DNA of 64,000 bases from a virus (taxonomy: Duplodnaviria; Caudoviricetes). The stretch spans positions 2,089 through 66,088 of the IMG/VR virus record IMGVR_UViG_3300037308_000558; one strand, given 5' to 3'. Each line of letters starts with the position of its first letter. Within the stretch, counting starts at the first letter, position 1. Of this stretch, positions 28,422 to 61,570 are shown one piece after another. Below the pieces are notes generated by a model. That model was not told the origin of the DNA, ran no database searches, and saw only the letters and a program-made list of their open reading frames with translations. The position numbers and the translations under genes are program-made.

Positions 28422-29583
28422 CTTCCCCCCAGAGATGCTGCTGGCGCTTCAGGATGAGCTGGAGAAGGGCGCAGCGATTCCAGGCATGCAGGCGGCCCGG
28501 AATCTCCTCTCTCGGCAGGGCTCCGCCATCGGTGCTGGCGCGGGTCTTGGGGCCGCCGTGGGTGGCCTGGGAGGCCTCGGCGTGGGCGGCGTGCGGGGCT
28601 ACCGGGAAGCGCGCGAGCAGGGCGCGAGCCGCGGGCAGGCAGCGCTCATGGGGCTTGGCAGAGGGGCGATGGGGGTAGGACGCGGCGCTACCGTCGGGGC
28701 TCTGGCGGGCGCCGGCGCGGGTGCCCTTTCGGGCCAGCGGGGTGTGGAGCTGGCTCGGGAGCTGTCTGGGAAGGAGGGCCTGCACGCCAGCCTGGCCCGC
28801 TCAGGCCAGCGTCAGCTCCACTCCCTGACGGGGTGGACTCCGGAGGCGGGCCTCGAATCTGTTCGTGGTGGTGCCTGGGGCGCCAAGCAGCGTGCGGCGA
28901 AGGCGTTGCAGAAGTGGGAGTCGGCGTCAGGTGCTACGGGCAAGGACCTCGCTTCTGGCAAAGTACGCGGTCTCACGAAAGCACCCACCCCGGGAGCCGC
29001 CGAGGGTGTGGCGCATGACGTACTCGACCCCAAGGCGCTGAAGGCACGCTCTGCTGCTCGGAAGGAGTACGAGTTGGCGCTGCAGCATCAAGGTGCGGTC
29101 GAGAAGTCCGTGGAACACGGCATGACCAATCTGCCGGGGATGTACCAGGCCCTCAAGGGCCCCAACCGCATGGAAGCCCTCAAGGCCGGCGTGGGCGCTG
29201 GGTGGCATGGAGACACCGCGGCCATGAAGGCCCTCAACGTGGGTCTCCCGCTGGGAATGGTGGGCTTGGCTGCGGCCACGTCGCCCAAGGAAGAACGCGG
29301 ACAGGCCGTGGGGCGCGAAGCGGGCATGGCCGCCGCGGGGATGCTCTCGCCCTTCACGGTCATGCCGTTCGTCGGAGGCCAGGTCCTAGCCAGGGGCGCA
29401 CAGGCAGCCGGTAAGACCGTCGGGAAGGGCATCGACAAGCTGCGCAACCGGCATGCGGGCCTGCCCAGCGTGGCGCAGGTTCCCGGCACCGAGGGTGGAG
29501 ACGGGGGCAACCCGCCCTTCCCCATCGAGCGCAACTACTCGAACTCGGCCTTGGGTAGGCCGCCAGAGGGCATGGGCGTATGA
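28414..29583 (+). CDS. glycine-zipper protein, candidate internal/ejection protein (389 aa)
   Basis: N-terminal QDELEKGAA; GxxxG repeats IGAGAGLGAAVGGLGGLGVGG and GATVGALAGAGAG. Confidence 0.65.
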   Translation: MSSFPPEMLLALQDELEKGAAIPGMQAARNLLSRQGSAIGAGAGLGAAVGGLGGLGVGGVRGYREAREQGASRGQAALMGLGRGAMGVGRGATVGALAGAGAGALSGQRGVELARELSGKEGLHASLARSGQRQLHSLTGWTPEAGLESVRGGAWGAKQRAAKALQKWESASGATGKDLASGKVRGLTKAPTPGAAEGVAHDVLDPKALKARSAARKEYELALQHQGAVEKSVEHGMTNLPGMYQALKGPNRMEALKAGVGAGWHGDTAAMKALNVGLPLGMVGLAAATSPKEERGQAVGREAGMAAAGMLSPFTVMPFVGGQVLARGAQAAGKTVGKGIDKLRNRHAGLPSVAQVPGTEGGDGGNPPFPIERNYSNSALGRPPEGMGV

Positions 29584-31574
29584 GCTTCACCGGCGGCATC
29601 TTCGGTACAGGCACCAGTCCCAACGCGGCCATGCGCTTCTCGATGACGAGAGGCCGCATTCAGGGAGGCGCCGGAGCCGGCGTCAACTACCCGTCCCCCT
29701 TCTTCGACGTCGCGCACACGTACCTGCCGACGACGATCAAGCACCTGTTCAAGTTCTGCCGCTTCTACTTCTTCACCAACCCCCTCGTCAACGCGACGGT
29801 CTTCAAGCTCTCCGAGTACCCCATCACGGACATCATCGTCGACCACGACGACCCGGGCGTTCGGAAGAAGTGGCGCGAGTACTTCCACGACCACCTGCAG
29901 TACCGCAACTTCCAAATCGAGAGCGGCCTCGACTACCACTGCTACGGCAACTGCATCACCAGCATCAGCTTCCCCTTCCAGAAGTACCTGAAGTGCAAGG
30001 AGTGCGGCTGGACGGAGCGCGCCGAGAAGACGAAGCCACTCTGGACCTTCACGAACTACGAGTTCAGGCTGAACTGCCCGAAGTGCGGCAGCACGTCGGA
30101 AGCAACCGCCTACGACCACTACGTGCGCAACGCCAGCGGCATCAAGCTCATCCGTTGGAACGTCGAGGACGTCGAGATCAGCTACAACGAGATGACGGGC
30201 GACTCGACGTACTTCTACACCATCCCGGGCCCCCTTCGGAACGACATCACCGTGGGGAAGAAGGACGTCGTCGACAAGATCCCGCAGATCTTCATCCAGG
30301 CCCTGCGCCAGGGCAAGGGTGTGGTCATCAGCAAGGACAACCTCTTCCATCTCAAGAGGCCCACGCTGGCGTGGCAGGACCGTGGCTGGGGCGTTCCGCT
30401 CATCATGCCCGTGCTCAAGGACACCTTCTACCTGCAGATGATGAAGAAGGCGCAGGAGGCCATCCTGCTGGAGCACATCGTGCCGCTGCGGGTCCTGTTC
30501 CCGCAGGCTGCGTCGGGTACCACCGACCCCTTCACGACCATCAACCTCATCGACTGGCGTGACCAAGTGGCGAGCGAGATTGCCCGGTGGCGCTTCGACA
30601 ACAACTACATCCCCATCATGCCGCTGCCCTTGGGGCAGCAGACCGTCGGCGGTGAGGGCAAGCAGCTCTTGCTCTTCAACGAGATCCAGTCGCTCTCCGA
30701 GCACATCATCATGGGGATGGGTGTGCCCAAGGAGTTCCTGATGGGCGGGCTCAGCTACGCGGGCACGAACGTGTCGATGCGCATGCTGGAGAACGCGTTC
30801 ATCGGCTACGTGAGTCGGCACCGACTCATGGCGCGCTGGGTCATGCGCTTCATCGCGAACTTCATGCGTTGGCCCGTGGCCAACATCAGGTTCAAGCCCT
30901 TCAAGATGGCCGACGACCTGCAGCGCAAGGCGTACCTCTTCCAGCTCAGCGGTGCGCAGAAGATCTCGGACACCACCCTTCTTGCGGATGCGGATCTAGA
31001 CAAGGAAGAGGAAGACGAGATCATGAGCCGCGAGTCGGACAAGACGCTCGCGACTCAGAAGAAGCAGCAGCTCGCCCAGGCGGAGATCCAAGGCGAGGCG
31101 CAGGTAATCATGCAGAAGATGCAGGTGAAGGCGCAGCAGGCCATGCAGGGAGCGCAGGCCGCACCCCAGGCCCCCGGCGAGCCCGGCGGTCCCGAGGCCG
31201 CCCCGACCACTCCGCCTCCTGAAGAGGGTGGCCCTCCGCAGGCACCTCCGGCCGAAGCAGGAGGTCAGGGGCCCGCTCCGCCCGAGGCCCAGAGCCAGCT
31301 CAACGCAGGCCAGCGTCTGCCCGAAGGGCAGGCCGGCATGGACCTCAACAGCATGGCGCAGAGCTACGCGCAGCAGCTCTCGCAGATGCCACCCGACCAG
31401 CAACAGCAGGCCATCCAGGCCATCGCTGCCCAGAGTCCCGAGCTCGCGCAGCTGGTGCAGCAGTACCTGGCCTCGATGGGTGCTGGTGGCGGGCAGCAAG
31501 GACAAGAGCAGGGCGTCAACATGCAGCCCTTGCCCGACAAGCTGCCGCCGCGTCGTGCGAACGCGCCAATCTAG
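29580..31574 (+). CDS. portal protein with Zn-ribbon insertion and Q/P-rich tail
   Basis: NPLVNATVFKL, DYHCYGNC, LFHLK, WGVPLIMPV and MGVPKEFL follow portal-family pattern order. Confidence 0.72.
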   Translation: MSFTGGIFGTGTSPNAAMRFSMTRGRIQGGAGAGVNYPSPFFDVAHTYLPTTIKHLFKFCRFYFFTNPLVNATVFKLSEYPITDIIVDHDDPGVRKKWREYFHDHLQYRNFQIESGLDYHCYGNCITSISFPFQKYLKCKECGWTERAEKTKPLWTFTNYEFRLNCPKCGSTSEATAYDHYVRNASGIKLIRWNVEDVEISYNEMTGDSTYFYTIPGPLRNDITVGKKDVVDKIPQIFIQALRQGKGVVISKDNLFHLKRPTLAWQDRGWGVPLIMPVLKDTFYLQMMKKAQEAILLEHIVPLRVLFPQAASGTTDPFTTINLIDWRDQVASEIARWRFDNNYIPIMPLPLGQQTVGGEGKQLLLFNEIQSLSEHIIMGMGVPKEFLMGGLSYAGTNVSMRMLENAFIGYVSRHRLMARWVMRFIANFMRWPVANIRFKPFKMADDLQRKAYLFQLSGAQKISDTTLLADADLDKEEEDEIMSRESDKTLATQKKQQLAQAEIQGEAQVIMQKMQVKAQQAMQGAQAAPQAPGEPGGPEAAPTTPPPEEGGPPQAPPAEAGGQGPAPPEAQSQLNAGQRLPEGQAGMDLNSMAQSYAQQLSQMPPDQQQQAIQAIAAQSPELAQLVQQYLASMGAGGGQQGQEQGVNMQPLPDKLPPRRANAPI

Positions 31575-31639: not shown

Positions 31640-31987
31640 TCAGCCCTTCAGGAACTCGTTGACGATGGCGCCCATGACGATGCCAGCGGCCACGGCGCCG
31701 CTGCTCGTGTGGTGCACACGGCGCTCGACCACCACACGGCGCTCGTCGCGCTCGTCTCGCACGTTCTCAGCACGCCACCCGTCCCAGAGGACGGCGTGTC
31801 CGAGTGCCGTTCCCTGGTACGCTGCGAAGGCGGAGAAGACCTCGTTGGGGAGCCGCGAGATTGTCTCGCGGTCAAGCGAACCCGCGAACCCGCGGGAGTA
31901 CTTGACCCACCGGTTTCCTTCCCGCGTATAGAGCGTGTAGCGGTAAGAATCGCGAACGGCCTGGAGAGCTTCGATCTTCGTTTTCAT
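31640..31987 (-). CDS. hypothetical protein with hydrophobic C-terminus (115 aa; ATG 31987)
   Basis: AGGAG SD; MKTKIEAL...AVAAGIVMGAIVNEFLKG. Confidence 0.6.
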   Translation of the reverse strand: MKTKIEALQAVRDSYRYTLYTREGNRWVKYSRGFAGSLDRETISRLPNEVFSAFAAYQGTALGHAVLWDGWRAENVRDERDERRVVVERRVHHTSSGAVAAGIVMGAIVNEFLKG

Positions 31988-32026
31988 GGTTCCGTCTCCT
32001 ATTTGCCTTGGTTTCCTGGTCATTGT

Positions 32027-32035
32027 TCTTATGCC
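32027..32035 (-). promoter_or_regulatory. GGCATAAGA motif
   Basis: Exact copy 39 nt upstream of ATG 31987. Confidence 0.6.
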
Positions 32036-32168
32036 TGCTTTCCAGGCGTTTTTGCGGCTAGGAAAAGCGCGTGTGGGCGCCCGGGAGAAGGAGAGGAGCC
32101 ACCACCAGGACTCCGGAGGACCCACACGCGCGAGGTAGCTTGTAGAGGCGTCTCCACCTCTTCACTCT

Positions 32169-32186: not shown

Positions 32187-33425
32187 TCAGTCTTTGCACT
32201 CGACGACGGTGCCCCACGGCGCCGGCACCTTGCATGGCGGGATCGTGCACCAGATGACGTTCATGTTGACTGGACGTGCCGGGCTGTCCCCGTAGCCGTC
32301 GGTGAGGTAGAACACCACGTCGGGCCTGGGGTTCAGCTTCGTCACGGCGGCAAGCGCGTGCTTGAAGGACGTCCCTCCACGGCCGAGAGCCGGGAGCTTC
32401 TTGACGTCCCGCACGTGCACGCGTGTGGGCTTCCGCTGCACCTTCACATCCGCGTCGAGCAGCCACACCTCGTCGATGTTCATCTGCTTCATGACGTTGA
32501 TGATCTCGTTGTTGGCGACGTTGATCATGTCGTCATCCATGGATGCCGACGTGTCCCGGATGAAGGCGACTTCGAGCTCGGGGTCTACGAGTCCCCGTCG
32601 GATGACACCAAGAAGCGCGGCTCGTCGATTCGGGTGTGCCAACGAGTAGTCGAAGCCACCGTTGGCGATACGGCCGAGTAGCTTGCCGGCTACATGTCGG
32701 AGCTTGTGCCGCCAGTTGATCGTGCTGCGCTTCTCCTGGAAGATGATGTCGCTCTTGGAGGCGCCGGGGATGCTCCCCCATCCGTTCTTCTTGGCGTACT
32801 CCTTCATGCTGGAAACGGCGCTCTTCTTGGCCTGCTCTACCTCGGTCTCCGACCGACCCGCCGCCTTGTCGAGCGTATCCTCCAGCGCCTTGGAGATTGG
32901 GTTTCCCGCTACGCCTCCGCACTTCCCGCCGGCTACCCCCTTGGGCATCTTCTCCATCTTCTTCTGGTTGCGCATGAGCAGCTCGTAGTACTGCTCCAGC
33001 GTCAGACCCTTCTTGAAGCCCTGCTTCTCGGGGTGGCACCCCCAGCTGGGTAGCTTCCAACCTGCTTCCAGCATGGGAGGGTTGATGGTGTAGTCGGCAG
33101 CGTAGTTGGCCGCTTCTGGGGAGAAGCTGCTCGCCGTCCTGATGCGCAGCTCCTCGATGCGCACCAGGTGGTTCAGCGACGGGTGCATCGCCTCGTGAAA
33201 GACGCACCCACCGACGACGTCGTAGTCGGTGATCTCTGGGTCGGTGAGGAGCCACACGGGGTCGTACGCCAGCACCAGGCCCTTCGACACGCCCATCGTG
33301 CCGATGCCCGTCACCTGGATGGGCACCAGCTTGTAAAGCATGCCGCAGTAGGGAGCCCGCTTGATGGCGTACTTCCTTCCCTTGGCCAGGAGCTGTGCTG
33401 CTTCGGGGATGTAGGCGTCAGTCAT
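32187..33425 (-). CDS. HExxH metallopeptidase-like + vWA-like protein (DUF2201 type)
   Basis: FHEAMH, ANYAADYTIN, MIDAS-like RDTSAS, GRGGTSF, YLTDGYG. Confidence 0.85.
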   Translation of the reverse strand: MTDAYIPEAAQLLAKGRKYAIKRAPYCGMLYKLVPIQVTGIGTMGVSKGLVLAYDPVWLLTDPEITDYDVVGGCVFHEAMHPSLNHLVRIEELRIRTASSFSPEAANYAADYTINPPMLEAGWKLPSWGCHPEKQGFKKGLTLEQYYELLMRNQKKMEKMPKGVAGGKCGGVAGNPISKALEDTLDKAAGRSETEVEQAKKSAVSSMKEYAKKNGWGSIPGASKSDIIFQEKRSTINWRHKLRHVAGKLLGRIANGGFDYSLAHPNRRAALLGVIRRGLVDPELEVAFIRDTSASMDDDMINVANNEIINVMKQMNIDEVWLLDADVKVQRKPTRVHVRDVKKLPALGRGGTSFKHALAAVTKLNPRPDVVFYLTDGYGDSPARPVNMNVIWCTIPPCKVPAPWGTVVECKD

Positions 33426-34629
33426 CGCGCAGATCCGGTCTGCCGTATCCACCCGCGTCCAAGGCCGCGATGACCTTCTCTGCGGCAGCGGATAGGTCGG
33501 CGTTGCCGTGGTGCTTTCTTCCCAGCTTGTTGCGGATGAACAGCTGGGTGGACTCCGTCGCCAGGTCGGCGTTGCCGTCCGTGATGACGTGGTAGAGGAT
33601 GTCCCACGCAGGGATGGCTGCCTTCACGGCGTCCTTGTACGCCAAGTCGATGACGTACTTGGCCATGTTGGCGATGGCTGCCATGGAGATGTCGATGCGC
33701 AGGCGGTCGTACCTCCACTTCTCCGCGAGCATCTTCTCGGGCTTCGGCAGGTTCGCCTTCGCCGCCCACTCACTCCATGCCTCTCCGGCTTCTTCACCCA
33801 CGAGCGACTCGACGATCTCGCCTTCGAGCTCCTGGGGCATGCCCAGTGCTCGCGCGGTCGTGACAGCGCAGCTTGCCCAGTGCCACGTGCGCAGGCTGGG
33901 CCACGCGCCTCCGCTCTTCGGGTCGTCGGGCTCGGGCTGAACGTGCGCGAGGTCTTGTCGGCACTCGTCGAAGCCGATGAAGAGCGCGTTCACCTCACCC
34001 CAGTGCTTGTAGAAGTTGTCCAGCACCATCTTCTCGGCATCCTGGACGTTCTTCAGCGGATTCTCCACACGGATGCCCATGCGCCACTGCCGACGCTCTC
34101 GCTGCGGCGGGCACTTGTACGGCTTGTGCGCCATCTTGTTCGCCATGGGCGGACTGATGGGGTAGCCACCCGCGGCGTGCTCTGGTGGGTTCATCGCCAT
34201 CAAGATCCGTGTCTTGCCGGGCAGCGGCGTGTCGCCAACCCGCTTCTCATCGATCATGGTGAGGAAGCCAGCTTGCACGGCGGGCCTCATGCAGCTCACC
34301 TCATCGGCGAAGATGACACCGCGGCCCTTGTTGATGATGGCGCGCGCGGCGGGCAGGACGCACTCCACGAGGATACCCGTCGTGGTAGGCACGTAGACGC
34401 CGGAGAAGTCGTCGGGTTGCTTCGTCGAGCCCGAGAAGCAGTAGGTGTCCAGGCCCACCATGTTCCCGATGGTGCTGATCCTCTTGCTCTTGCGGATACC
34501 GGACAGGCCCACAAGACACGTGGAGATGCCCCACAGAGTGACCGGGTCGAACAGCGAGCGCGGGTCGCAGGGGTCGATGATGGGAGTCATCATCATCGTC
34601 ACGAGGTACTGCTCAAGCGTTGTACTCAT
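33418..34629 (-). CDS. MoxR/AAA_5-type ATPase
   Basis: GLSGIRKS (variant Walker A), DDFSG, IFADE (Walker B), MAMNP, PSLRTW; paired with the vWA gene. Confidence 0.82.
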   Translation of the reverse strand: MSTTLEQYLVTMMMTPIIDPCDPRSLFDPVTLWGISTCLVGLSGIRKSKRISTIGNMVGLDTYCFSGSTKQPDDFSGVYVPTTTGILVECVLPAARAIINKGRGVIFADEVSCMRPAVQAGFLTMIDEKRVGDTPLPGKTRILMAMNPPEHAAGGYPISPPMANKMAHKPYKCPPQRERRQWRMGIRVENPLKNVQDAEKMVLDNFYKHWGEVNALFIGFDECRQDLAHVQPEPDDPKSGGAWPSLRTWHWASCAVTTARALGMPQELEGEIVESLVGEEAGEAWSEWAAKANLPKPEKMLAEKWRYDRLRIDISMAAIANMAKYVIDLAYKDAVKAAIPAWDILYHVITDGNADLATESTQLFIRNKLGRKHHGNADLSAAAEKVIAALDAGGYGRPDLRDD

Positions 34630-34918
34630 TCTTCCTCTCGATTTCTTGGGCCTCTCGGCACCACTCCTTCTGAAGAACCGTCACGATCTGCCCTCCGTGC
34701 AGCACGGCGTAGGCATCCTCACCTTCCAAGCTAAAGGGAACGAGCGTGCCGCCGGGCGTCTCGATCCCTTTGCCCTTCTTCAGGGCCTTGTCGATCTTCG
34801 GTAGCACCCGGCGGCACAAGTCGGTGTCGCTCATGTGGCGGATGCACCGCCAGTACGACCGCATGCGGCTGAGCGCATGCGGCGTTAGAAACAGACGGCG
34901 CCTATCCGTACTGGCCAT
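34613..34918 (-). CDS. hypothetical protein (101 aa)
   Basis: LFLTPHALSRM...VLHGGQIVTV pattern; coupled ORF. Confidence 0.55.
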   Translation of the reverse strand: MASTDRRRLFLTPHALSRMRSYWRCIRHMSDTDLCRRVLPKIDKALKKGKGIETPGGTLVPFSLEGEDAYAVLHGGQIVTVLQKEWCREAQEIERKNEYNA

Positions 34919-35432
34919 CTGCCTCTTGCTGCTGGCGGTACATGACCTCATCGCGCTCGTCGTCATCGAAGCCCTCTTCCCATAGCTCGATGACGTCACC
35001 GCTCAACCGTGCAGCGCAGGCGCGGCACCACACCTCCGGCTTCTGCACGCCGGCGAAGTGGATGGTGGGTTTGCCCGCCGGCATGCGCTGCGAGCGCCTG
35101 AGCTCACCGAGGGTGATGACAGCGGTGATCTCCATGTTCTCGATGCCACTCTTGCAGATGGCGCAAGAGCGCGTGGCACCGGGCTTGCCCACCGGCGGCA
35201 GGTCTTCCACCAGGCCTTCCAACGTCTCCCTCGTCTCCTCCCAGCACTCCATGCAGAAGAAGTGCGGGGTGTAGACGAAGTCGCCACCCTCCTCCACGTT
35301 GTAGAAGACCTCGCCGCCTTCAGGGGTGATGCTCTGGTAGAGCACCTGGACTAGAAAGACCTCGTCCGTTAGGGCGAGCTCCTCCCCGCAGTCGGAGCAG
35401 ATGTGCTCCGTTGCGATCAGATTCTCTTCCAC
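34902..35432 (-). CDS. multi-Cys Zn-binding protein (176 aa; GTG 35432)
   Basis: CSDC, CMEC, CAIC, CRAC. Confidence 0.65.
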   Translation of the reverse strand: MEENLIATEHICSDCGEELALTDEVFLVQVLYQSITPEGGEVFYNVEEGGDFVYTPHFFCMECWEETRETLEGLVEDLPPVGKPGATRSCAICKSGIENMEITAVITLGELRRSQRMPAGKPTIHFAGVQKPEVWCRACAARLSGDVIELWEEGFDDDERDEVMYRQQQEADGQYG

Positions 35433-35998
35433 AGGATCTTGTCTCTCCCCACCCGCGCCCAGCGGGTGTCGATGGTTTCCAGTCTCATGTCCGGGCCCAT
35501 GCCCGTCTGCGGGTCGCAGTCGTACAACATGGTGCTGAGCTCTTCGACGTCGTGCGACCCATCGACGTGAACTCGGCGGGACACCTCCAGTCCGTACGGG
35601 AGCACACCCGGGATTTGCGCCCTCAAGCCGTACTCCCGTTCGAGCATGTCGTCGGCGAGGTCCTCCCAATCCGCCGCGAAGCCGTACCACTCGCGGTCGG
35701 AGGGATCGGGGTACTCTTGCTCGGCCCAGTGGCAGTAGTCTCCCGGGTCTGCCACGCCCAGTAGAACTTCAAGATCACGTTGGTTGCAGAACGTGATGAA
35801 GTTCTTCTGGTCTTCGAGCTTCACCCGGATGCCGCCGAGTCGGCGGCTAGGGATGGGGGCGTAGACCCCCGTGATAACCCACGTCCTGTCCTGCAGGTGC
35901 GGGTCCGGGAGCTTCAGGCCCGACAGGCCCAGCTCCACGCTGAGGATCCGGGTTCCCGGCACCACCTGCAGGCTGTTGCTGTACGGGTTCAGGAGCAT
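35417..35998 (-). CDS. hypothetical protein (193 aa; ATG 35998)
   Basis: GC3-rich frame starting at MLLNPY. Confidence 0.65.
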   Translation of the reverse strand: MLLNPYSNSLQVVPGTRILSVELGLSGLKLPDPHLQDRTWVITGVYAPIPSRRLGGIRVKLEDQKNFITFCNQRDLEVLLGVADPGDYCHWAEQEYPDPSDREWYGFAADWEDLADDMLEREYGLRAQIPGVLPYGLEVSRRVHVDGSHDVEELSTMLYDCDPQTGMGPDMRLETIDTRWARVGRDKILWKRI

Positions 35999-36065
35999 TG
36001 GCCCTTTCCCAGATGTAAAGGAGCGCGCCTTGCAGCGCGCCCACCATGACGCCGAGCCAGAACAC
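35847..36065 (-). CDS. possible small membrane protein (72 aa), overlapping the next gene
   Basis: N-terminal hydrophobic helix FWLGVMVGALQGALLYIW with GC3-rich codons; 3' part overlaps 35417-35998. Confidence 0.35.
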   Translation of the reverse strand: MFWLGVMVGALQGALLYIWERANAPEPVQQQPAGGAGNPDPQRGAGPVGPEAPGPAPAGQDVGYHGGLRPHP

Positions 36066-36191
36066 CTACTCGTCCTTCTCCTTGTCCTTCTCCTCGCGTT
36101 CCTTCTTCTCTTCCTTCTCATCGTGGTCGTAGATGGAGCGTACGGCCTTCTTGGCGCGGTCACCCGAGTCTTCGTCCTTGCGGTCGTTCAT
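36066..36191 (-). CDS. 41-aa highly charged microprotein, absent from the ORF track
   Basis: AAGGAGG SD; MNDRKDEDSGDRAKKAVRSIYDHDEKEEKKEREEKDKEKDE. Confidence 0.6.
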   Translation of the reverse strand: MNDRKDEDSGDRAKKAVRSIYDHDEKEEKKEREEKDKEKDE

Positions 36192-36213
36192 GGCAACGAC
36201 CTCCTTCCGCTAC

Positions 36214-36222
36214 TCTTATGCC
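36214..36222 (-). promoter_or_regulatory. GGCATAAGA motif at the head of the 31.6-36.2 kb block
   Basis: Exact copy 22 nt upstream of ATG 36191. Confidence 0.6.
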
Positions 36223-36277
36223 GCGTGGCGAGGCTGGCTTGCTGCTATCCTTCCGCTGGGATAGGGTCGGGCTTGGG

Positions 36278-36286
36278 GTAGAATCG
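36278..36286 (+). promoter_or_regulatory. GTAGAATCG motif upstream of the RNAP gene
   Basis: Identical to 25611-25619; 9 nt before the ATG, with no SD. Confidence 0.55.
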
Positions 36287-36295
36287 TAGGCACCC

Positions 36296-39200
36296 ATGGC
36301 GCACCTTGATCACAAAGAAGCGTTCAACGAGTTCCGTGAGCGAGTCCTTGAAGGGATCAAGACGCACTTCCCCGTACAGGGCAGAACGCACACGCTGGAG
36401 CTCGACGGCCTGGAGGTGAAGGACGAGGGTCTTCATGCCGACGACATCCGCGCGCAGCACCAGGCCAAGGTGTCCGGTGAGAGCTGGAGCGCGCCGGTAT
36501 GGGGCAACATGGTCCTTCGGGACAACGCCACGGGCAAGGTCACCGAGCGGAAGAAGGTCCGTTTGGCCGAGCTGCCGATGACCACGCGCCGGTACAGCTA
36601 CATCGTGGATGGTAGCGAGTACCAAGTCGACAATCAGTGGCAGCTGAAGCCGGGCGTCTACACCCGCCGGCGCCAGTCGGGCGAGCTCGAAACGCGCTTC
36701 AACGTGCCGAACAAGCGTCCCTTCGATGTCGTCTTCTACCCCGAGAAGAAGGCGTTCTACATCGACCGCGGAAGTTCGAAGGCCATTCCCGTCTACCCCA
36801 TCATGAAGGCGCTCGGCGTGGATGACGACACGCTGAAGCAGAGCTGGGGCAAGGAGGTCTTCGAGGCAAGCAAGGCTGCGCGTGGTACAGCCAACACCCT
36901 CGCGAAGTTCTACAAGGTGGACAAGGGGGAGGCCCCGAAGAGTCAGGCCGACGCGGAGAAGTACCTCATCGACACCCTCCGCGATTCCAAGCTACGTCCG
37001 GAAGCCACCAAGGTCACGCTCGGGAAGCCCTTCACCGGCATCGATGGTGAGGTCCTCACGCTCGCCACGGCGAAGATGTTGAAGGTGCACCAGGGAGCAC
37101 CCGAGGACGACCGTGACAGCTTGGTGTTCAAGGACCTGCGTGGGTTGGGAGACTTCGCACACGACAAGCTGACGGACAGCAGCACGAAGAGCGCCATCAA
37201 GAACAAGATCATTCGTCAGCTGAACACGGGCAAGGGCATCCGCCAGGCGGTGAAGTTCGGGACGTTCAACATCCCCATTCGGGAGACGTTCACGAAGAAC
37301 TCCGCAGCGCGCACCGCCGACCAGATCAACCCCGTCGAGATGGTGGCGAGCTCGATGCAGACGACGCTCATGGGGCCTGGCGGCATCCAGAGCGCGCACG
37401 TGAACCTCGATGAAGCGAAGCTCGTGAACCCGTCGCACCTCGGCTTCCTCGATCCCCTGCACACACCCGAGAACGACAAGACGGGCGTCATCCTGCACCT
37501 GCCCGTGAGCGTGGAGAAGGTTGGCAAGGATCCGAAGATCCCCGTGCACAACCTGAAGACCAACAAGACGGACTGGGTCACGCCGCAGCAGTTCATGTCC
37601 TCGTCGGTTGTGCTGCCTGACCAAGTGCGTTGGGATGGTAACAAGCCCACGCCCATCTCCAAGAACGTGAAGATGGCGCTGCCTGGGAACGCGCTGGCCG
37701 AGGGGAAGTTCAGCGATGCCCAGTATGTGATGAAGCACCCGTCGCAAATGCTGAGCATCACGACGAACCTTGTGCCCTTCGTGAACAGCAACTCCGGCGG
37801 TCGTGCTAGCTACGCCACGCACCACATCGAGCAGGCCATTTCGCTCAAGCACAGGGAAGAGCCTTTGGTGCAGGTGGGCACGGGGTCGAGTGGGTGGAAG
37901 ACCTTCGAGGATCTCGTCGGCGGCATCTCCGGTCACGCGGCGCCCGTGAGTGGGAAAGTCGTTGCCGTGAAGAAGGATGCCGTGCACGTCGAGGGTGCGG
38001 ATGGAAAGGTGCGGGAGGTACAGCTCTACAACAACTTCCCCCTGAACGATCCCAAGGCTGTTCTGCACTCCGAGCCCGTGGTGAAGGTAGGCGACTCGGT
38101 GAAGAGCGGGCAGCTCGTGGCCGACACGAACTTCACGAAGGGCGGGAAGCTTGCGCTCGGCACGAACCTGCGCGTCGCCTACCTACCCTACAAGGGCTAC
38201 AACTTCGATGACGGCGTGGTCATCAGCCAAAGTGCCGCCAACAAGCTGGCGAGCGTGCACCTCTACAAGCCCTCGACGCGGCTCACTCCAGACACCATCA
38301 CCCGCGCGGATGTCTTCAAGGACCAGCACCCCGAAGCATTCACGAAGGACCAGTTCAGCATCCTCAACGACGAGGGCCTTGTACGCGTTGGTCAGGTCGT
38401 GAAGCCTGGGGATCCACTCGTCCTCGCCACGCGCCCGTACAACCTCCGAGACCGCTCCGGCGCCGCGGCCATTCGTAGGAGCCTGTCCGGGGCGCACACC
38501 GATACGTCGCTGCGATGGGATGCGGACTACCCGGGCGAGGTCGTTGGCGTGCACAAGAACAAGGACGGCACCGTCGCCGTGCACGTACGAACGACGGAGC
38601 CCATGCAGGTCGGCGACAAGGTCAGCGGTCGGCACGGCAACAAGGGCATCGTCACGCAGGTCCTTCCGGACCATGAGATGCCGCACACCGCGGACGGCAA
38701 GCACATCGAGGTGGCGCTGAATCCTGCAGGGGTTCCCGGCCGCATCAACGTGGGGCAGGTACTGGAAACGGTGGCGGGTAAGATTGCTCAGAAGACGGGC
38801 AAGCCCTACATCGTAGAGAACTTCATGCACGGACCGGACAACATCGGCCGCATGAAGAAGGAGCTCAAGGAGCACGGCCTCACCGACACGGAGGAGCTCC
38901 ACGACCCCACCACCGGTGTGAAGCTGGGAAAGGCTCTAGTCGGTCCTCAGTACATGCTCAAGCTGATGCACCAGATTGACAAGAAGGACTCTGCACGTTC
39001 GGGCATGGATCTGCGCGGTACGGCTCCGGAGGGCTACGACCTGAACCTCATGCCCGTCGGTGGTGGCCACTCGGGTGCTCAGTCCATCGGCAACCTCGGC
39101 ATGTACACGATGCTTGCGCATGGGGCGAAGGCCAACATCCGCGAGATGCAGACGTGGAAGAGTGAGGGCCCCGATGCCGCTCCTGACGGGAAGCGGTGGC

Positions 39201-42200
39201 CGAGTCAGCATGAAGAGGTGTGGCGTGCCATCCAGACTGGGGACGCCCTGCCCCCTCCGCGCCCCACGTTCGCCTTCCAGAAGTTCACGGACATGCTACG
39301 TGGTGCGGGCGTGAACATCGAGAAGAAGGGGCATCGCTTTCAGCTCACGCCTCTTACGGACAAGCAGATCCTGAAGATGTCAAATGCCGAGCTCCCGAAG
39401 CCGGCTGACCTGACGTACACCAAGCTCGACAAGAATGGCGAGCCCGTACCGAAGCCTGGAGGCTTGTTCGATCCCAAGCTCACGGGTGGGCACAGCGGCA
39501 AGCATTGGACGCACTTCACGTTGGCGGAGCCCATGCCCAATCCCGTGTTCGAGGCGCCCATCCAGCGCATCCTGAACATCACGAAGGGGCAGTACTCCGA
39601 CCTCATCAACAGCAACAAGGCAGTTCATCAGCACACGGGAGAGTTCGTGCCCGTGGGATCTGCCGACTCCATCACCGGGGGAGCCGCGGTGGTGCACATG
39701 CTTGGGAAGGTCGACGTACAGGCGGAGCTCAAGAAAGCTCAGGAGGACCTCGCCAAGGCCCCCGTACCCAAGGCCATCCAGTTTGGCGCCGCCGCGCAGA
39801 AGATGGACACTGCCCTGAAGAAGGTGAAGTACCTCAAGGCGCTCGACGAGCTCAGCATGAGCCCGAAGGATGCGTACGCCCTTCACCACATCCCCGTGCT
39901 GCCTCCCGCGATGCGTCCTGCTTCCGTGCTGCCCGACGGCAACGTGCGCTGGGCAGATCTGAACGGCCTCTACAGCGACCTCGCCAGCCTCAACGACGAG
40001 ATGAAGCACAAGGACTTCAAGTCGCAGCTCACCGACCACGACAAGAAGGAACAGCGCGCGAGCCTGTACGACGGCGTGAAGGCCTTGATGGGCATCGGTG
40101 CCAATCGGGAGGACCGCGAGGGTAAGGCCAAGGGCATCCTCCTTCAGATCTCGGGCAAGAGCCCGAAGGAGGGTTACTTCCAGAACACGCTGTTGAGCCG
40201 TCGGCAGGACCTGACCATGCGGAGTACCATCGTGCCGGAGCCCGCCATGGGGCTCGACCAGGTTGGGCTACCGAGCGAGAAGGCCGTCACGCTTTTCCGA
40301 CCCTTCGTGGTCAAGAAGATGGTGGACATCGGCGCGGCGCCGCATCCCCTCGAAGCGCAGAAGATGCTGGCTAGCAAGGACGCGCACAAGAACAGCCAGG
40401 TCTTGCGCGCGCTGGACCTCGTGATGGAGGACCGCCCGGTTCTTCTGAAGCGTGACCCTGTCCTGCACAAGCACGGCATCATGGCGTTCAACGCGCACCG
40501 GGTGCCTGGCAAGGCCATTCAGATCCATCCCCTCGTGACCGGGGGCTACAACGCCGACTTCGATGGCGACGCCATGAGCGTCTACGTGCCCATCAGCCCT
40601 GACGCAGTGCAAGAGGCGCGGAAGATGTTCCCGTCGAACAACCTCTTCAACGAATCGACGGGGCACATCATGAACGCGCCCACGCACGAGAGTGCACTCG
40701 GGTTGTACAAGCTAGCCAGGATTGGAACGGACACGGGCAAGAAGTTCAAGGATCCCGCGGAGGCCCTGAAGGCCGTCGATTCGGGGTCTTCGCACATCAA
40801 CGACCTTGTGCACGTCAACGGCGTAGGGAAGACGACTCCGGGTCGCCTACTCCTGTCGTCTGCCGTTCCAGAGGCGCTCCGCTCCAAGGTGCTGACTGAC
40901 CACAGCATGACGTTGGACAAGAAGGGGATCGCGGAGCTCTACAAGAACATCGCCGTCAACCACACGAAGGATTTTGGTGAGGTGGCCAACAAGTTGAAGG
41001 ACTTGGGTTACGGCATGTCGTACGGCGCCCTGGCCATTCGGCACCCCGACCATACCGGCTCCGCCGCCATTCACGCCGCGGAGGACCAGAAGAACCGCGT
41101 CAAGTTCCTTCCCACGGGCACGCACTCGTTCTCCTTGGACGACTTCGCCGTGGACAAGGCGTCTCGTGACCCCGTCATCAAGAGCACGCAGAAGAAGGTG
41201 GATTCCATCAACGCCTCCAGCATCTCCCAATCCATGAAGGATGCGCGGGTCATCGATGAGTGGCAGAAGGCAACGGGTACGATTGCCGATCTGCACAAGG
41301 CCCACCTGCAGAACAACAAGAACACGTTGCATGAGATGAGCGCGTCCGGGCTGAAGCCGAGCTGGGATCAGTACAGGCAGATCAAGCTCGCGCCCATGCT
41401 CATGAACGACGCCTCGGGACGCGTCATCCCCACGCCGGTGACGAAGTCCTACGCCGAGGGTCTCGACATGTTCGGCTACTGGACGCAGATGCACGGGCAG
41501 CGCAAGGGCGCCGTCGCGAAGGTTCAGGAAGTGCGCGAGCCGGGCTACTTCACGAAGCAGCTCATCAACACGACGATGAACCTGGTCGTGAACGGTCACG
41601 ACTGCGGCACGCAGCGCGGCGTGGCACTACCCATCACGTCGAACGACGTGCACGACCGCGAGCTTGTGGCAGACATCAAGGTGCGGAATCAGGTGTTCCC
41701 CAAAGGGACTGTGCTCAGCCCCGATGTCGTCTCGCAGATCCGTACCCTGGACAAGAACGCTCAGGTCGCGGTGCGCAGTCCGCTCAAGTGCGAGCACGGC
41801 AAAGGCATCTGCCAGAAGTGTGCTGGCCTGTCCGCTTCCGGTTCGCACTACGACATGGGCACCAACGTGGGCATCCTTGCCTCCCAGTCTCTTGGTGAGC
41901 GCTCTACGCAGTTGGCACTCCGCGTCTTTCACACCGGCGGTGTGGCTGGCGGTGGAGGAAAGCTCATCGGGCAGTTCGGGCGCGTGCAGCAGCTGACGAA
42001 GCTGCCGGAGAGAATCCCCGACGAAGCTGCGCTTGCCATGCACGCTGGGAAGATCGAGAAGGTGGAGCACAGCAAGTTGGGTAGTACGGTCACCATCAAC
42101 GGGCAGGAGCACTTCGTGCCCTTGGACCGCGGTGGCAGGCGCTTGACGGATCCCTTGCCCGGCCTGAACAAGGTTAGGTGGGAGCCTCCCAAGGTGGGTA

Positions 42201-42751
42201 TGACCGTGAAGGCGGGGGACGTGCTCAGCGACCCCAACCGCACCTTCGTGAACCCGCACACGCTCTACAAGGCGACGGGCAACATGGAGGCGGTGCAGAA
42301 CCACCTGGTCAACGAGCTCCACAGCCTGTACTCCTCGGAGGGCATCCGTCGGCAGAACGTCGAGATGCTCGTGAAGGGCATGAGCAACCTCACACGCGTC
42401 ATCGAGCCTGGGCACGCCGAGGGCATCCTCAAGGGCGAGTACCACCCCACCTCCGTCATCCGGCAGATGAACAAGGAGCTCGCCACGAAGGGCAAGAAGC
42501 CCGTTCAGCATGCCCCCATCCTCAAGGGTGTTGACGTCCTACCTCTACACCTGCAGGAAGACTGGATGGCGAAGATGAACTTCGAGCGGCTGCGTGGTAG
42601 CGTGATGGAGGCCGCCGCGACGAACGCCTACTCCGACATCCACGGTCTACACCCCATTCCCGGCATGGCTTATGGTGCGGAGTTCGGGATGACGGAGAAG
42701 AAGAAGCACGTCATGCCTCATGTAGCCAACGTACCGGGACACCACTACTGA
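36296..42751 (+). CDS. rpoBC: single-chain DNA-directed RNA polymerase, beta-beta' fusion (2151 aa)
   Basis: Beta motifs LDPLHTPE, NLVPF, GYNFDDG, GDKVSGRHGNKG, LKLMHQ; beta' motifs PVLPPAMRP, LLKRDPVLH, YNADFDGD (40550-40570), HGQRKG, QSLGERSTQLALRVFHTGG. Confidence 0.97.
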   Translation: MAHLDHKEAFNEFRERVLEGIKTHFPVQGRTHTLELDGLEVKDEGLHADDIRAQHQAKVSGESWSAPVWGNMVLRDNATGKVTERKKVRLAELPMTTRRYSYIVDGSEYQVDNQWQLKPGVYTRRRQSGELETRFNVPNKRPFDVVFYPEKKAFYIDRGSSKAIPVYPIMKALGVDDDTLKQSWGKEVFEASKAARGTANTLAKFYKVDKGEAPKSQADAEKYLIDTLRDSKLRPEATKVTLGKPFTGIDGEVLTLATAKMLKVHQGAPEDDRDSLVFKDLRGLGDFAHDKLTDSSTKSAIKNKIIRQLNTGKGIRQAVKFGTFNIPIRETFTKNSAARTADQINPVEMVASSMQTTLMGPGGIQSAHVNLDEAKLVNPSHLGFLDPLHTPENDKTGVILHLPVSVEKVGKDPKIPVHNLKTNKTDWVTPQQFMSSSVVLPDQVRWDGNKPTPISKNVKMALPGNALAEGKFSDAQYVMKHPSQMLSITTNLVPFVNSNSGGRASYATHHIEQAISLKHREEPLVQVGTGSSGWKTFEDLVGGISGHAAPVSGKVVAVKKDAVHVEGADGKVREVQLYNNFPLNDPKAVLHSEPVVKVGDSVKSGQLVADTNFTKGGKLALGTNLRVAYLPYKGYNFDDGVVISQSAANKLASVHLYKPSTRLTPDTITRADVFKDQHPEAFTKDQFSILNDEGLVRVGQVVKPGDPLVLATRPYNLRDRSGAAAIRRSLSGAHTDTSLRWDADYPGEVVGVHKNKDGTVAVHVRTTEPMQVGDKVSGRHGNKGIVTQVLPDHEMPHTADGKHIEVALNPAGVPGRINVGQVLETVAGKIAQKTGKPYIVENFMHGPDNIGRMKKELKEHGLTDTEELHDPTTGVKLGKALVGPQYMLKLMHQIDKKDSARSGMDLRGTAPEGYDLNLMPVGGGHSGAQSIGNLGMYTMLAHGAKANIREMQTWKSEGPDAAPDGKRWPSQHEEVWRAIQTGDALPPPRPTFAFQKFTDMLRGAGVNIEKKGHRFQLTPLTDKQILKMSNAELPKPADLTYTKLDKNGEPVPKPGGLFDPKLTGGHSGKHWTHFTLAEPMPNPVFEAPIQRILNITKGQYSDLINSNKAVHQHTGEFVPVGSADSITGGAAVVHMLGKVDVQAELKKAQEDLAKAPVPKAIQFGAAAQKMDTALKKVKYLKALDELSMSPKDAYALHHIPVLPPAMRPASVLPDGNVRWADLNGLYSDLASLNDEMKHKDFKSQLTDHDKKEQRASLYDGVKALMGIGANREDREGKAKGILLQISGKSPKEGYFQNTLLSRRQDLTMRSTIVPEPAMGLDQVGLPSEKAVTLFRPFVVKKMVDIGAAPHPLEAQKMLASKDAHKNSQVLRALDLVMEDRPVLLKRDPVLHKHGIMAFNAHRVPGKAIQIHPLVTGGYNADFDGDAMSVYVPISPDAVQEARKMFPSNNLFNESTGHIMNAPTHESALGLYKLARIGTDTGKKFKDPAEALKAVDSGSSHINDLVHVNGVGKTTPGRLLLSSAVPEALRSKVLTDHSMTLDKKGIAELYKNIAVNHTKDFGEVANKLKDLGYGMSYGALAIRHPDHTGSAAIHAAEDQKNRVKFLPTGTHSFSLDDFAVDKASRDPVIKSTQKKVDSINASSISQSMKDARVIDEWQKATGTIADLHKAHLQNNKNTLHEMSASGLKPSWDQYRQIKLAPMLMNDASGRVIPTPVTKSYAEGLDMFGYWTQMHGQRKGAVAKVQEVREPGYFTKQLINTTMNLVVNGHDCGTQRGVALPITSNDVHDRELVADIKVRNQVFPKGTVLSPDVVSQIRTLDKNAQVAVRSPLKCEHGKGICQKCAGLSASGSHYDMGTNVGILASQSLGERSTQLALRVFHTGGVAGGGGKLIGQFGRVQQLTKLPERIPDEAALAMHAGKIEKVEHSKLGSTVTINGQEHFVPLDRGGRRLTDPLPGLNKVRWEPPKVGMTVKAGDVLSDPNRTFVNPHTLYKATGNMEAVQNHLVNELHSLYSSEGIRRQNVEMLVKGMSNLTRVIEPGHAEGILKGEYHPTSVIRQMNKELATKGKKPVQHAPILKGVDVLPLHLQEDWMAKMNFERLRGSVMEAAATNAYSDIHGLHPIPGMAYGAEFGMTEKKKHVMPHVANVPGHHY

Positions 42752-43982: not shown

Positions 43983-43993
43983 GTTTCCCGTTG

Positions 43994-44002
43994 TGCTATA
44001 AC
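43994..44002 (+). promoter_or_regulatory. extended -10 promoter TG-C-TATAAC, probable leaderless transcript
   Basis: Hexamer ends 6 nt before ATG 44009; no SD. Confidence 0.65.
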
Positions 44003-44008
44003 CTTTGC

Positions 44009-44611
44009 ATGACCCCGGAAGAACGCAAGGAGAGAAAGCGACAAAGGCACGCGGCTTGGTACGCGAGAGAGAAGGAGAGAGACCCAGAAGGACTACGTGC
44101 GAAGCAACGAGAGGCGTACAGGAGAAGGGTAGCTACCGCAGAGGGGAGAGAAGCCGACCGCGCGTACAAAAGGGAGCAGGCGCGTAACTGGCGGGCCGAG
44201 CACCCAGAAGAAGCGAAAGAAGCATACCGTAGAGCGCACAAGTCGCTCATGTCCGACCAGGAGCGCCTGGAGAAGAAGCGGGCGTACGCGAGGGAGAACC
44301 AAAAACGCTTTCGGGAAAACAACTGGAGAGGTTGGTACTCTTCCAAATTGAAGTCCAAATATGGCATTACCCTCGAAGGATACGAGGCCTTGTTGAAGAA
44401 GCAGAACGGCATGTGCGCTATCTGCAAGAAGCCCGAAAAGGCTGCTAGCTACAGGAAACCCGGAGCTCGCCTTTCTCTCAGCGTTGATCATTGCCACACA
44501 ACGGGGAAAGTCCGCGGTCTACTTTGTGCAAACTGCAACCGAGGGCTTGGTCTTTTCCAACATGACCGAGCAATACTGAAGAGCGCCTCGGCGTATCTGC
44601 GCAAGAGCTAG
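44009..44611 (+). mobile_element. free-standing endonuclease VII-family (His-Me) homing endonuclease
   Basis: YGITLEGYEALLKKQNGMCAIC...LSVDHCHTTGKVRGLLCANCNRGLG; visibly more A-rich than the flanking genes. Confidence 0.88.
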
Positions 44612-49201: not shown

Positions 49202-51040
49202 GTGGTGAGGTCCGTTGTGTACGTTGGCGGGTACATAGAGCCAGAGCTGGATGACTTCGACGACACCTACCTCGTGGGGGACGGCATCTCGTGGAAGCCC
49301 GGCGATGAGGTGGAGTACGAGGAGGACCCTATCGTCATACAAGAAGCCGTGCAGCACCTCCCCAAGGCTAGCTCGATACGGCCCTCCGAGTTCACCGAGT
49401 TCGCGTTCTGGATGCCCACGCACAACAAGGATAACCCGGGCGGGGAGAACGGGCTAGGGCACGACCGCTTCACGTTCAGCGGCCGTCGCCACATGCGGAC
49501 GATCTACGACACGAACGCGGATCACATCCTCCTCATGTGCGGCCGGCAAGTGGAGAAGTCCACGTGCCTGGGCAACCTGGCCCTCTGCTACATGTCACTC
49601 GTGCCGGGCTTCTTGACCCTGTACGTAAGCCCCTCGGCCACGCAGTCCAAGGTGTTCAGCAACGACCGCGTGAAGACGCCCATCGAGACGAGCCCCCTGC
49701 TGAAGCGCTTCACGACGCACATGCTCTCCCAGAACATCTTGGAGAAGCAGTTCGTCAACTACTCCAAGATCACGATGCGCTACGCGTTCCTCAACGCGGA
49801 TCGCGCGCGTGGCATCGCGGCCTACCTGCTGGAGCTCGACGAGTTCCAGGACATCCTCGCCGACAACGTGCCCGTCATCGAGCAGGGCCTGTCGCACGCC
49901 CCCGACCAGTGGCGCCGCTTTCTCTACGCAGGCACGCCGAAGAGTCTCGACAACAACATCGAGAAGCACTGGTCGACGCTCTCTACGATGAACGAGTGGG
50001 CGGTGCCTTGTACTTGTACCGGTGGCGAGGGTGGGCGCTACTGGAACATCCTCTGCGAGAAGAACATCGGCCGCAAGGGGCTCATCTGCGCCAACTGCGG
50101 GGCGTTGCTCGACCCCATGTGCGACGACGCTCAGTGGGCAGCGCAGGTGAAGATGAACCCACCGAAGGTCATCTTCGAGGGCTACCACATCAGCCAGCTG
50201 ATGGTTCCATGGCGGAAGTGGCACGACATCCTCAACGACTACGCGAACTACCCGCGAGCTAAGTTCTACAACGAGGTCCTCGGCCTCAGCTACGACGAGG
50301 GCATGCGCCCGCTGACGACGCATCACCTGGAGTCCGCGTGCAACAAGAGCTTGTCCATGTCCAAGGTGCAGCAGTACCGGCCCATGTCCTACGGCCAGCC
50401 CGTGTACGCTGGAATCGACTGGGGTACTGGTGAGCACTGCTACACCGTCATCTGCCTCGGCACGTACGTCGACATGAAGTTCCGCGTGTTCTTCTGGCAC
50501 CGCTTCATCGGTGAGGAGACAGAGCCTGACGTCCAGCTCAAGCGCATCGTCGAGCTTGTCAACTTCTTCAACGTCCGTCTCATCGGCGCCGACTACGGCG
50601 GTGGTTTTGCCATGAACCACCACCTCGTGCGCGCCTTCGGGCAGCAGCGCGTGCACCAGTTCCAGTACGTGGCGCGTTCGGCGCACAAGATGAAGTACGA
50701 CACGAAGTTCGGGCGGTGGAAGGCGTCGCGCACCGAAGTGATGAGCGACATCTTCAACGCCATCAAGCGCAAGCAGTTGGAGTTCCCCCGTTGGGAAGAG
50801 TTCCGGGAGCCCTTTGCGCAGGACATGCTGAACATCTTCAGCGAGTACAACGAGAACTTGCGCATGATTCAGTACAAGCACGTGCTGGACAAACCAGACG
50901 ACAGCTTCCACGCGCTCGTGTACTGCATGCTTGCGTCGCACCTCATGCGCCCACGCCCGGACATCTTCGTGCCGCGCCAAGAGGTCAAGGGCGTGCCCAT
51001 CGCTACGTACAAGGGGCCCGCTGACCAGGGGAGCGTCTAG
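49202..51040 (+). CDS. terL: terminase large subunit (GpA-like; start uncertain)
   Basis: CGRQVEKST (Walker A-like), LDEFQD (Walker B), AGTPK (motif C), GIDWG and PDDSFHAL nuclease aspartates; CxC...CxxC. Confidence 0.9.
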   Translation: MVRSVVYVGGYIEPELDDFDDTYLVGDGISWKPGDEVEYEEDPIVIQEAVQHLPKASSIRPSEFTEFAFWMPTHNKDNPGGENGLGHDRFTFSGRRHMRTIYDTNADHILLMCGRQVEKSTCLGNLALCYMSLVPGFLTLYVSPSATQSKVFSNDRVKTPIETSPLLKRFTTHMLSQNILEKQFVNYSKITMRYAFLNADRARGIAAYLLELDEFQDILADNVPVIEQGLSHAPDQWRRFLYAGTPKSLDNNIEKHWSTLSTMNEWAVPCTCTGGEGGRYWNILCEKNIGRKGLICANCGALLDPMCDDAQWAAQVKMNPPKVIFEGYHISQLMVPWRKWHDILNDYANYPRAKFYNEVLGLSYDEGMRPLTTHHLESACNKSLSMSKVQQYRPMSYGQPVYAGIDWGTGEHCYTVICLGTYVDMKFRVFFWHRFIGEETEPDVQLKRIVELVNFFNVRLIGADYGGGFAMNHHLVRAFGQQRVHQFQYVARSAHKMKYDTKFGRWKASRTEVMSDIFNAIKRKQLEFPRWEEFREPFAQDMLNIFSEYNENLRMIQYKHVLDKPDDSFHALVYCMLASHLMRPRPDIFVPRQEVKGVPIATYKGPADQGSV

Positions 51041-61547: not shown

Positions 61548-61555
61548 TCCTAACT

Positions 61556-61564
61556 TGCTATATT
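61556..61564 (+). promoter_or_regulatory. extended -10 promoter TG-C-TATATT, probable leaderless transcript
   Basis: Hexamer ends 6 nt before ATG 61571; no SD. Confidence 0.62.
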
Positions 61565-61570
61565 GGCCTC

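Follow-up and report, generated by a model that had tools for sequence, protein, structure and literature searches.

A fused beta-beta' RNA polymerase gene common to a large family of tailed phages

The fused polymerase gene

The stretch of DNA analysed here (64,000 nt, hereafter the window) covers positions 2,089 to 66,088 of the IMG/VR virus record IMGVR_UViG_3300037308_000558, a 66,088-bp linear contig without terminal repeats whose completeness is estimated by CheckV at 35%. Positions 36296-42751 of its plus strand form a single open reading frame (ORF) of 2151 aa, free of internal stops and of inteins, in which the two large subunits of a cellular RNA polymerase (RNAP) follow one another. 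The Pfam domains Rpb2_3 and Rpb2_6 are found within residues 340-902 (PF00562 at an E value of 4.9e-60), and Rpb1_1 (below its cut-off), Rpb1_2, and Rpb1_5 within residues 1013-2040. With the first 1008 residues as the query, compact solved bacterial beta subunits matched residues 10-960 (E = 6e-72, 246 bits), in comparison to only approximately 94 bits, over residues 613-951, for archaeal and eukaryotic Rpb2. The second half matched solved bacterial beta' subunits at E = 9e-104, and the best bacterial beta' in the PDB scored approximately 350 bits. Based on the order of the Pfam domains and on these matches to solved bacterial subunits, the chain is therefore a bacterial-type beta followed by a bacterial-type beta', and an earlier, sequence-only reading of the ORF as a cellular-like beta-beta' fusion is borne out. 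That reading had also placed a linker of about four residues at approximately 39320-39335, directly after GVNIE, and KKGH is indeed located there, at 39323-39334, between ...GVNIE and RFQLTPLTD... (GVNIEK-KGH-RFQL). The RFQLTPLTD segment aligns with E. coli beta' from approximately residue 16, and the junction is kept across the phage family described below, Arash gp206 and D69_0261 included.

This one chain carries the complete catalytic core of a multisubunit RNAP of the bacterial type (Table 1). The catalytic NADFDGD motif, the two beta lysines, the bridge helix, the trigger loop, and the second zinc site had all been read as intact and are all present in the alignment; the fused enzyme is apparently active. 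Several E. coli segments are absent. The beta half lacks the inserts beta 228-349, 938-1039, and 1127-1180, and the beta' half lacks the SI3 trigger-loop insert (E. coli beta' 945-1131) and the C-terminal tail (1371-1402), all of which are lineage-specific or peripheral. The remaining loss is of another kind: a 32-residue deletion, seen family-wide, removes E. coli beta' 68-99 together with its four cysteines, and with it the beta' N-terminal zinc-binding domain, which to our knowledge is otherwise universal. At the positions of E. coli H526, R529, and S531, rifampicin cluster I has diverged strongly, and since the pocket has changed in this way, the phage polymerase is probably insensitive to rifampicin. 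Additionally, 30 residues are inserted in the window polymerase at residues 1577-1606 (about nt 41024-41113), relative to E. coli beta' position 633.

Table 1. Positions of the polymerase gene, its parts, and neighbouring features in the window.
Feature	Position	Strand	Evidence or remarks
Fused beta-beta' RNAP gene	36296-42751	+	Intact 2151-aa frame and Pfam domain order
Beta half, residues 1-1009	36296-39322	+	Alignment to solved bacterial beta
Beta flap and flap tip	38408-38533	+	Present, four residues shorter, diverged sequence
GRHGNKG, two catalytic-site Lys, residues 778-784	38627-38647	+	Alignment to E. coli beta
Junction KKGH, residues 1010-1013	39323-39334	+	Between ...GVNIE and RFQLTPLTD...
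Beta' half	39335-42748	+	Alignment to bacterial beta'
Deletion site of beta' N-terminal zinc-binding domain	39482-39514	+	TGGHSGKHWTH, zero Cys
Beta' clamp helices (coiled coil)	39929-40111	+	Present, diverged (alignment)
NADFDGD catalytic motif, Mg-binding triad, residues 1419-1425	40550-40570	+	Alignment to E. coli beta'
Bridge helix	41456-41593	+	Alignment
Second zinc site	41603-41821	+	C1770, C1832, C1839, C1842 align with E. coli C814, C888, C895, C898
Trigger loop without SI3	41852-42031	+	Conserved Arg and His retained
Portal protein homologue	29580-31574	+	30% identity over approximately 500 aa to Arash gp204
161-aa ORF between portal and polymerase	31640-32125	-	Seen in the window only
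Three genes between portal and polymerase	32187-35690	-	HNH-like phrog_1314, ATPase phrog_1297, 262-aa unknown
Promoter-like element before polymerase ATG	36239-36284	+	TTGC, then GGTAnnnT 17-19 nt on; putative function
Probable gp5/VgrG-like central spike, 409 aa	42753-43982	+	Weak but concordant domain and PDB matches
Endonuclease VII-like gene	43991-44611	+	phrog_2914, E 5e-31; follows spike-like gene
Terminase large subunit (TerL)	49202-51040	+	phrog_675, E 1.7e-58; PF05876
Major head protein	59274-60401	+	phrog_2522, E 3.4e-13
HNH homing endonuclease with N-terminal helix-turn-helix	61181-62239	+	Directly past head genes

Phage family and evolutionary position

Sequence comparisons place the polymerase in a very large and old clade found only in phages, with a design common to hundreds of them. 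Among the matches listed by a word-indexed search, the best 120 clusters at 90% identity are fused without exception (120/120; 2124-2675 aa, 53-79% identical); their members sit on contigs of up to approximately 200 kb, and inteins make several of them longer. When the beta' half was searched exhaustively with HMMER, at least 150 clusters at 50% identity were listed, each scoring no less than 545 bits, and this floor for the listed family clusters compares with the approximately 350 bits of the best bacterial beta' in the PDB. In IMG/VR, 72 loci carry a related polymerase, and full length is kept across hundreds of lineages at 40-80% identity. Of the five complete relatives examined, which measure 185-195 kb, three have direct terminal repeats; each of the five has a single RNAP gene, and the gene order portal ... 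RNAP - spike-like - ... - TerL is conserved among them. Many polymerases of the family reach 2500-4700 aa through inteins with LAGLIDADG domains (P0002, P0030, P0053, and others). In the closest relative, P0002 (79-84% identity), the intein is inserted near residue 946, in the beta part; the window copy is intein-free.

A megablast comparison of the window with cultured phages gave no match. At the protein level, the nearest cultured relatives are the Vibrio phages D69, D148, and D181 and Salmonella phage Arash, with 32-34% identity. The Arash and D69 polymerases are approximately 33% identical to that of the window over 92% of its length, share its beta-beta' junction and the loss of the zinc-binding domain, and fall into the same clade in both of the trees described below; in both phages the polymerase gene adjoins the portal gene, and a phage sigma is also present. 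They differ, as do those of D148 and D181, in that beta is fused only to the N-terminal two-thirds of beta', the rest of which is a separate second gene (in Arash and D69 the split falls after approximately residue 1525), whereas the window polymerase is one chain. Additionally, their catalytic motif reads AADYDGD rather than NADFDGD, and the window subgroup, unlike Arash and D69, has three minus-strand genes between portal and RNAP. Because Arash and D69 share both the junction and the zinc-domain deletion, the beta-beta' fusion is, by this comparison, older than the whole clade. In the description of Arash, the RNAP (Gp206 and Gp216) and the sigma (Gp10) were annotated as subunits and the fusion was not discussed (PMC10585845).

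When one genome per GTDB species was scanned, no copy of the phage family turned up, and the best of the 553 confirmed matches, which are ordinary bacterial beta' subunits, are just 27-31% identical to the window polymerase. In a concatenated beta and beta' tree (30 rows, 1923 columns, LG+G4), nine phage enzymes stand opposite 21 bacteria that span approximately nine phyla, and the branch between them has a Shimodaira-Hasegawa-like approximate likelihood ratio test (SH-aLRT) support of 100 and a length of approximately 1.7 changes per site. The same split was recovered with an SH-aLRT of 100 under the LG+C20 posterior mean site frequency (PMSF) model (17 rows, 900 beta' columns). Placement within a bacterial rpoBC clade, named in the sequence-only reading as one of the outcomes that would speak against it, is thus not what was found, with identities of at most 31% and a fully supported split. 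Fusion has also arisen in cells. A metagenome-assembled genome (MAG) of Candidatus Paceibacterota (L124:172-7017, DATJQA010000074.1) carries an rpoB-rpoC fusion of 2281 aa, which in both trees groups not with the phages but with an unfused enzyme of the candidate phyla radiation (CPR; Parcubacteria L156), and which is therefore an independent fusion. Among the other records encountered, the rpoBC of a MAG labelled Alistipes (L149) groups with Oscillospiraceae, which suggests mis-binning, and two records filed as phages (OR844998.1 and CAKLQF020000005.1) carry a bacterial rplL-rpoB-rpoC cluster and so contain host DNA.

The window enzyme can be compared with four kinds of polymerase. Cellular rpoBC fusions, such as those of Helicobacter and Wolbachia, resemble it in that beta is joined head-to-tail with beta' in one polypeptide. 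However, in the cellular fusions the zinc-binding domain is retained, alpha2 and omega serve as partners, and the gene is part of the ribosomal-protein/rpoBC operon; furthermore, the fusion from L124 nests in its own bacterial lineage (with L156), unlike the phage enzymes. The uncultured tailed phages with deep-branching multisubunit polymerases that had been mentioned in connection with this ORF are the mReC Caudovirales, for which deep-branching beta and beta' were reported (Weinheimer & Aylward 2020, PMC7481178). Their subunits can likewise be aligned with bacterial beta and beta' and form a clade apart from cells, and they too come from metagenomes and have large genomes. Nevertheless, the published tables and descriptions (PMC7481178) set them apart as a different group: beta (approximately 1000-1490 aa) and beta' (approximately 890-1300 aa) are encoded by separate genes, in contrast to the one ORF of the window, and their capsid (PF07068) and terminase (PF03237) are of the T4 type, whereas the major head protein of the window has no PF07068 match and its TerL belongs to PF05876. 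None of the metagenome ids of the family loci appears in the contig lists for mReC.

Polymerases of the phiKZ/AR9 type are also phage homologues of beta and beta' without alpha or omega, and the virion contains one of the two enzymes (PMC7598289). They consist, however, of four or five highly divergent polypeptides, lack a factor of the sigma family, and are present as two enzymes in each genome (PMC7598289); the window, in contrast, encodes one chain and one enzyme, which has a sigma-family partner in its relatives and is far closer to the bacterial enzymes. The crAss-like gp66 is a single chain of approximately 2150-2180 aa with both double-psi beta-barrels and is packaged in the virion (bioRxiv 10.1101/2020.03.07.982082), whereas packaging is only possible for the window enzyme. 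Its sequence shows no detectable similarity to beta or beta', and it resembles RNA interference (RNAi)-type polymerases (bioRxiv 10.1101/2020.03.07.982082), whereas the window polymerase matches the Pfam Rpb1 and Rpb2 domains with E values down to 5e-60. Reviews of jumbo-phage polymerases describe split, sigma-less enzymes only (PMC7824862; PMC7598289), and a literature search turned up no description of a phage polymerase that is both bacterial in type and fused.

Neighbouring genes and the upstream region

The polymerase gene sits inside a virion and packaging region, not in an uninterrupted operon with the portal gene. Of the structural operon proposed in the sequence-only reading, what stands is the location between the portal gene on one side and the genes for the spike-like protein, TerL, and the major head protein on the other; minus-strand genes intervene, and the polymerase gene has a promoter-like element of its own. 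For the portal homologue, a profile search of the PDB gave no match and the AlphaFold2 model was unusable (predicted local distance difference test score, pLDDT, of 44); its orthologues in Arash and D69 match the portal phrog_16240 at E values of 4e-7 and 9e-8, respectively. The three minus-strand genes that follow are kept in 8/10 of the metagenomic relatives compared (not in L022 and L034) and are absent at that position in Arash and D69.

Downstream, the polymerase stop codon (TGA, 42749-42751) is followed by a single T and then by the ATG of the spike-like gene at 42753, exactly the 1-nt spacing that had been pointed out. The product of that gene had been called a baseplate spike, and this can be kept as probable. 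The Phage_base_V oligonucleotide/oligosaccharide-binding domain is detected in 3/10 orthologues (best E value of 0.049) and Gp5_trimer_C in 1/10 (2e-5), and each of nine weak PDB matches is to VgrG or T4 gp5. These signals are weak but concordant, and the AlphaFold2 model of the 409-aa protein (pLDDT of 51) is too poor for fold comparison; the protein is a probable gp5/VgrG-like central spike. The endonuclease VII-like gene that comes next has no orthologue at that place in any of ten relatives (0/10) and is probably a mobile insertion, and four conserved genes of unknown function lie between it and the TerL gene. The contig also holds tail-fibre-like genes and, on the minus strand, a replication module comprising a Cas4-like exonuclease, a RecA/UvsX-like recombinase, PolA, a primase, DnaB, and a helicase.

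Comparison of the DNA upstream of the polymerase gene in eight relatives suggests a promoter-like element, in which TTGC is invariant and GGTAnnnT follows 17-19 nt downstream, within surrounding DNA that is unalignable. The window copy has two candidate -10 boxes, GGGATAGGGT and TGGGGTAGAAT. The layout of the element appears sigma70-like, and it could be read by either a phage or a host holoenzyme. A scan with the sigma70 consensus gave no match near the polymerase gene, and neither GGGTANNCT (4 found, 3.2 expected) nor KGGGTANNNT (7 found, 4.5 expected) is enriched in the window. Upstream of the element lies a minus-strand ORF of 41 codons (36066-36191), divergent from the polymerase gene, with a strong AAGGAGG ribosome-binding site and a very acidic, lysine-rich product; its region is conserved in relatives. 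An overlapping plus-strand ORF of 136 aa (35871-36281) was considered and rejected as a gene because it is the minus strand that carries the conserved coding signal in this region.

Partner subunits, virion packaging, and interpretation

The beta' clamp helices are the canonical docking site for sigma region 2. A search of the contig gave no match to sigma region 2, alpha, or omega, in agreement with the sequence-only reading, which had recognized no gene for any of these subunits; the sole sigma region 4-like match is the helix-turn-helix of the HNH endonuclease ORF (61181-62239). In such a fragment this absence means little, and a missing sigma is to be expected, because the contig is 35% complete and the window extends no farther than 36 kb before and 21 kb after the RNAP gene. 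Among the five complete relatives, neither alpha (PF01193, PF01000) nor omega (PF01192) was detected at E<=1 (0/5), although 14/14 control genomes match. All five (5/5) encode an orthologous sigma70-family protein of approximately 250 aa (44-48% identity), approximately 75 kb from the RNAP gene, the profile of which matches the SigA, FliA, and SigF structures at an E value of 2e-11; further sigma-like genes are present in some relatives. A complex model of the sigma and the N-terminal part of beta' from the relative G001 scored 0.69, compared with 0.41 for the best of three controls (the mark for this score is reached by 58/80 solved complexes and 2/110 mismatched pairs). At least 53% of contacts recur between the runs, the partner pLDDT is at least 69, and in the modelled interface the N-terminal half of sigma lies against the clamp helices. 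The polymerase thus most probably depends on a phage sigma, and the absence of alpha genes from the five complete relatives fits alpha-independence. Of the alpha- and sigma-independent enzyme suggested earlier, the first part is consistent with the lack of alpha and omega in these relatives; the second is not supported, as all five carry a sigma70-family gene and, in the model, the G001 sigma docks on the clamp helices.

It is likely, in our judgement, that a single-chain bacterial-type core works with a phage sigma and transcribes phage genes independently of the host polymerase. The covalent fusion would likely replace the assembly role of the alpha dimer, and because it takes over that role, the enzyme could work without alpha and omega. 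A phage-encoded sigma70-family factor, the gene for which likely lies in the part of the genome outside the contig, would dock on the clamp helices and give promoter recognition; core and sigma together would then likely transcribe the phage genes without the host polymerase. Several points weigh against this interpretation. Activity of the family members is predicted from their sequences, and with the sigma outside the contig, its pairing with the window polymerase is drawn from relatives at 53-60% identity. The G001 model fits a phage sigma serving either the phage or the host enzyme, and its score may reflect likeness to sigma-beta' complexes that have already been solved. No repeated promoter motif emerged, in that no k-mer is common to many intergenic regions of the window. 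The absence of alpha and omega rests on Pfam, which leaves room for a divergent analogue or a borrowed host alpha. As to the depth of the phage branch, the trees are unrooted, without an archaeal or eukaryotic outgroup, and contain few bacteria, and long branches join in them.

The borrowing of host subunits, also suggested in the sequence-only reading, deserves separate consideration. A fused chain that depends on the alpha dimer of the host, and perhaps on its omega or sigma, for assembly or for the start of transcription would account for the lack of phage alpha and omega genes and for a bacterial architecture that is kept overall, and there is a precedent in that cellular fused rpoBC enzymes still use alpha, as does the fused enzyme of Helicobacter. 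Nevertheless, the hosts of the family differ widely (Salmonella, Vibrio, and the host of the 62% G+C window phage) and the enzyme is just approximately 30% identical to any bacterial core, so that conserved docking to many different host alphas seems improbable. The conservation of a dedicated phage sigma and the truncated C-terminal tail of beta' likewise argue against borrowing, and we regard it as unlikely. Far less credible still is an inactive relic or a purely structural virion protein. Nothing specific speaks for it beyond the lost zinc-binding domain and the diverged rifampicin region, and it is at odds with the fact that no catalytic residue has been lost and that bridge helix, trigger loop, and second zinc site are all still there, with the full length kept across so many lineages, and with the inteins retained in the genes of some relatives, which presumably mark an essential gene, as inteins usually occupy essential, conserved sites. 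Lastly, fused rpoBC does occur in cells, as in the Paceibacterota MAG, and the phage gene might be a recent capture of such a bacterial fusion, for instance from a host with a fused gene. This is the least probable of the explanations considered: the best bacterial identity is 27-31%, a long and fully supported branch parts the phage clade from all sampled bacteria, the fusion from the CPR is placed with unfused CPR genes and away from the phages, and no family copy was found in the GTDB species scan.

In purified Arash particles, Gp206 was the most-detected protein, with 3516 spectra, and Gp216 (1210 spectra) and the sigma Gp10 (467 spectra) were also found (PMC10585845). Together with the gene context, this proteome makes virion packaging of the window enzyme plausible, and the earlier suggestion of a virion-packaged polymerase is left about evenly balanced; in that event, the enzyme would be made with the virion proteins, packaged, delivered with the DNA, and would start early transcription. 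However, the Arash 'virion' list comprises 116 proteins, ribonucleotide reductases and kinases among them (PMC10585845). Because it holds such metabolic enzymes, carry-over of abundant infection proteins is likely, and spectral counts are not copy numbers. A polymerase that is made in the infected cell after host-transcribed early genes, stays out of the virion, and with the phage sigma takes over middle and late transcription comes only somewhat short of an even chance. Besides the suspected carry-over, such an enzyme would suit the sigma70-like -35/-10 element before the gene in eight relatives, which a host holoenzyme could read, and the single RNAP per genome, unlike phiKZ-type phages with a virion and a non-virion enzyme. 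It would be less expected from the position among portal, spike, and terminase genes, which is conserved from the window clade to Arash and D69, and from the rank of RNAP as the most-detected protein of Arash particles. The most far-reaching proposal, a self-sufficient, virion-injected holoenzyme of two components (a single-chain core lacking alpha, omega, and the zinc-binding domain, and a phage sigma) from a lineage of bacterial-type polymerase that parted from the others before, or close to, the radiation of the bacterial phyla sampled here, is possible but doubtful.

Overall, these polymerases constitute a large phage family of single-chain enzymes without the zinc-binding domain and without an alpha or omega gene, which we have not found described in the literature. 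If active alone with sigma, such an enzyme would be the simplest bacterial-type RNAP known, requiring two genes instead of five. It would then be a tool to study the real contributions of alpha, omega, and the zinc-binding domain, as well as an orthogonal transcription system, and it would explain how widespread large phages escape dependence on the host polymerase and the inhibitors of that polymerase. Moreover, with this family the beta/beta' tree gains a viral branch that aligns well, which is relevant to when viruses acquired the enzyme, and the cultured relative Arash makes these questions directly testable.

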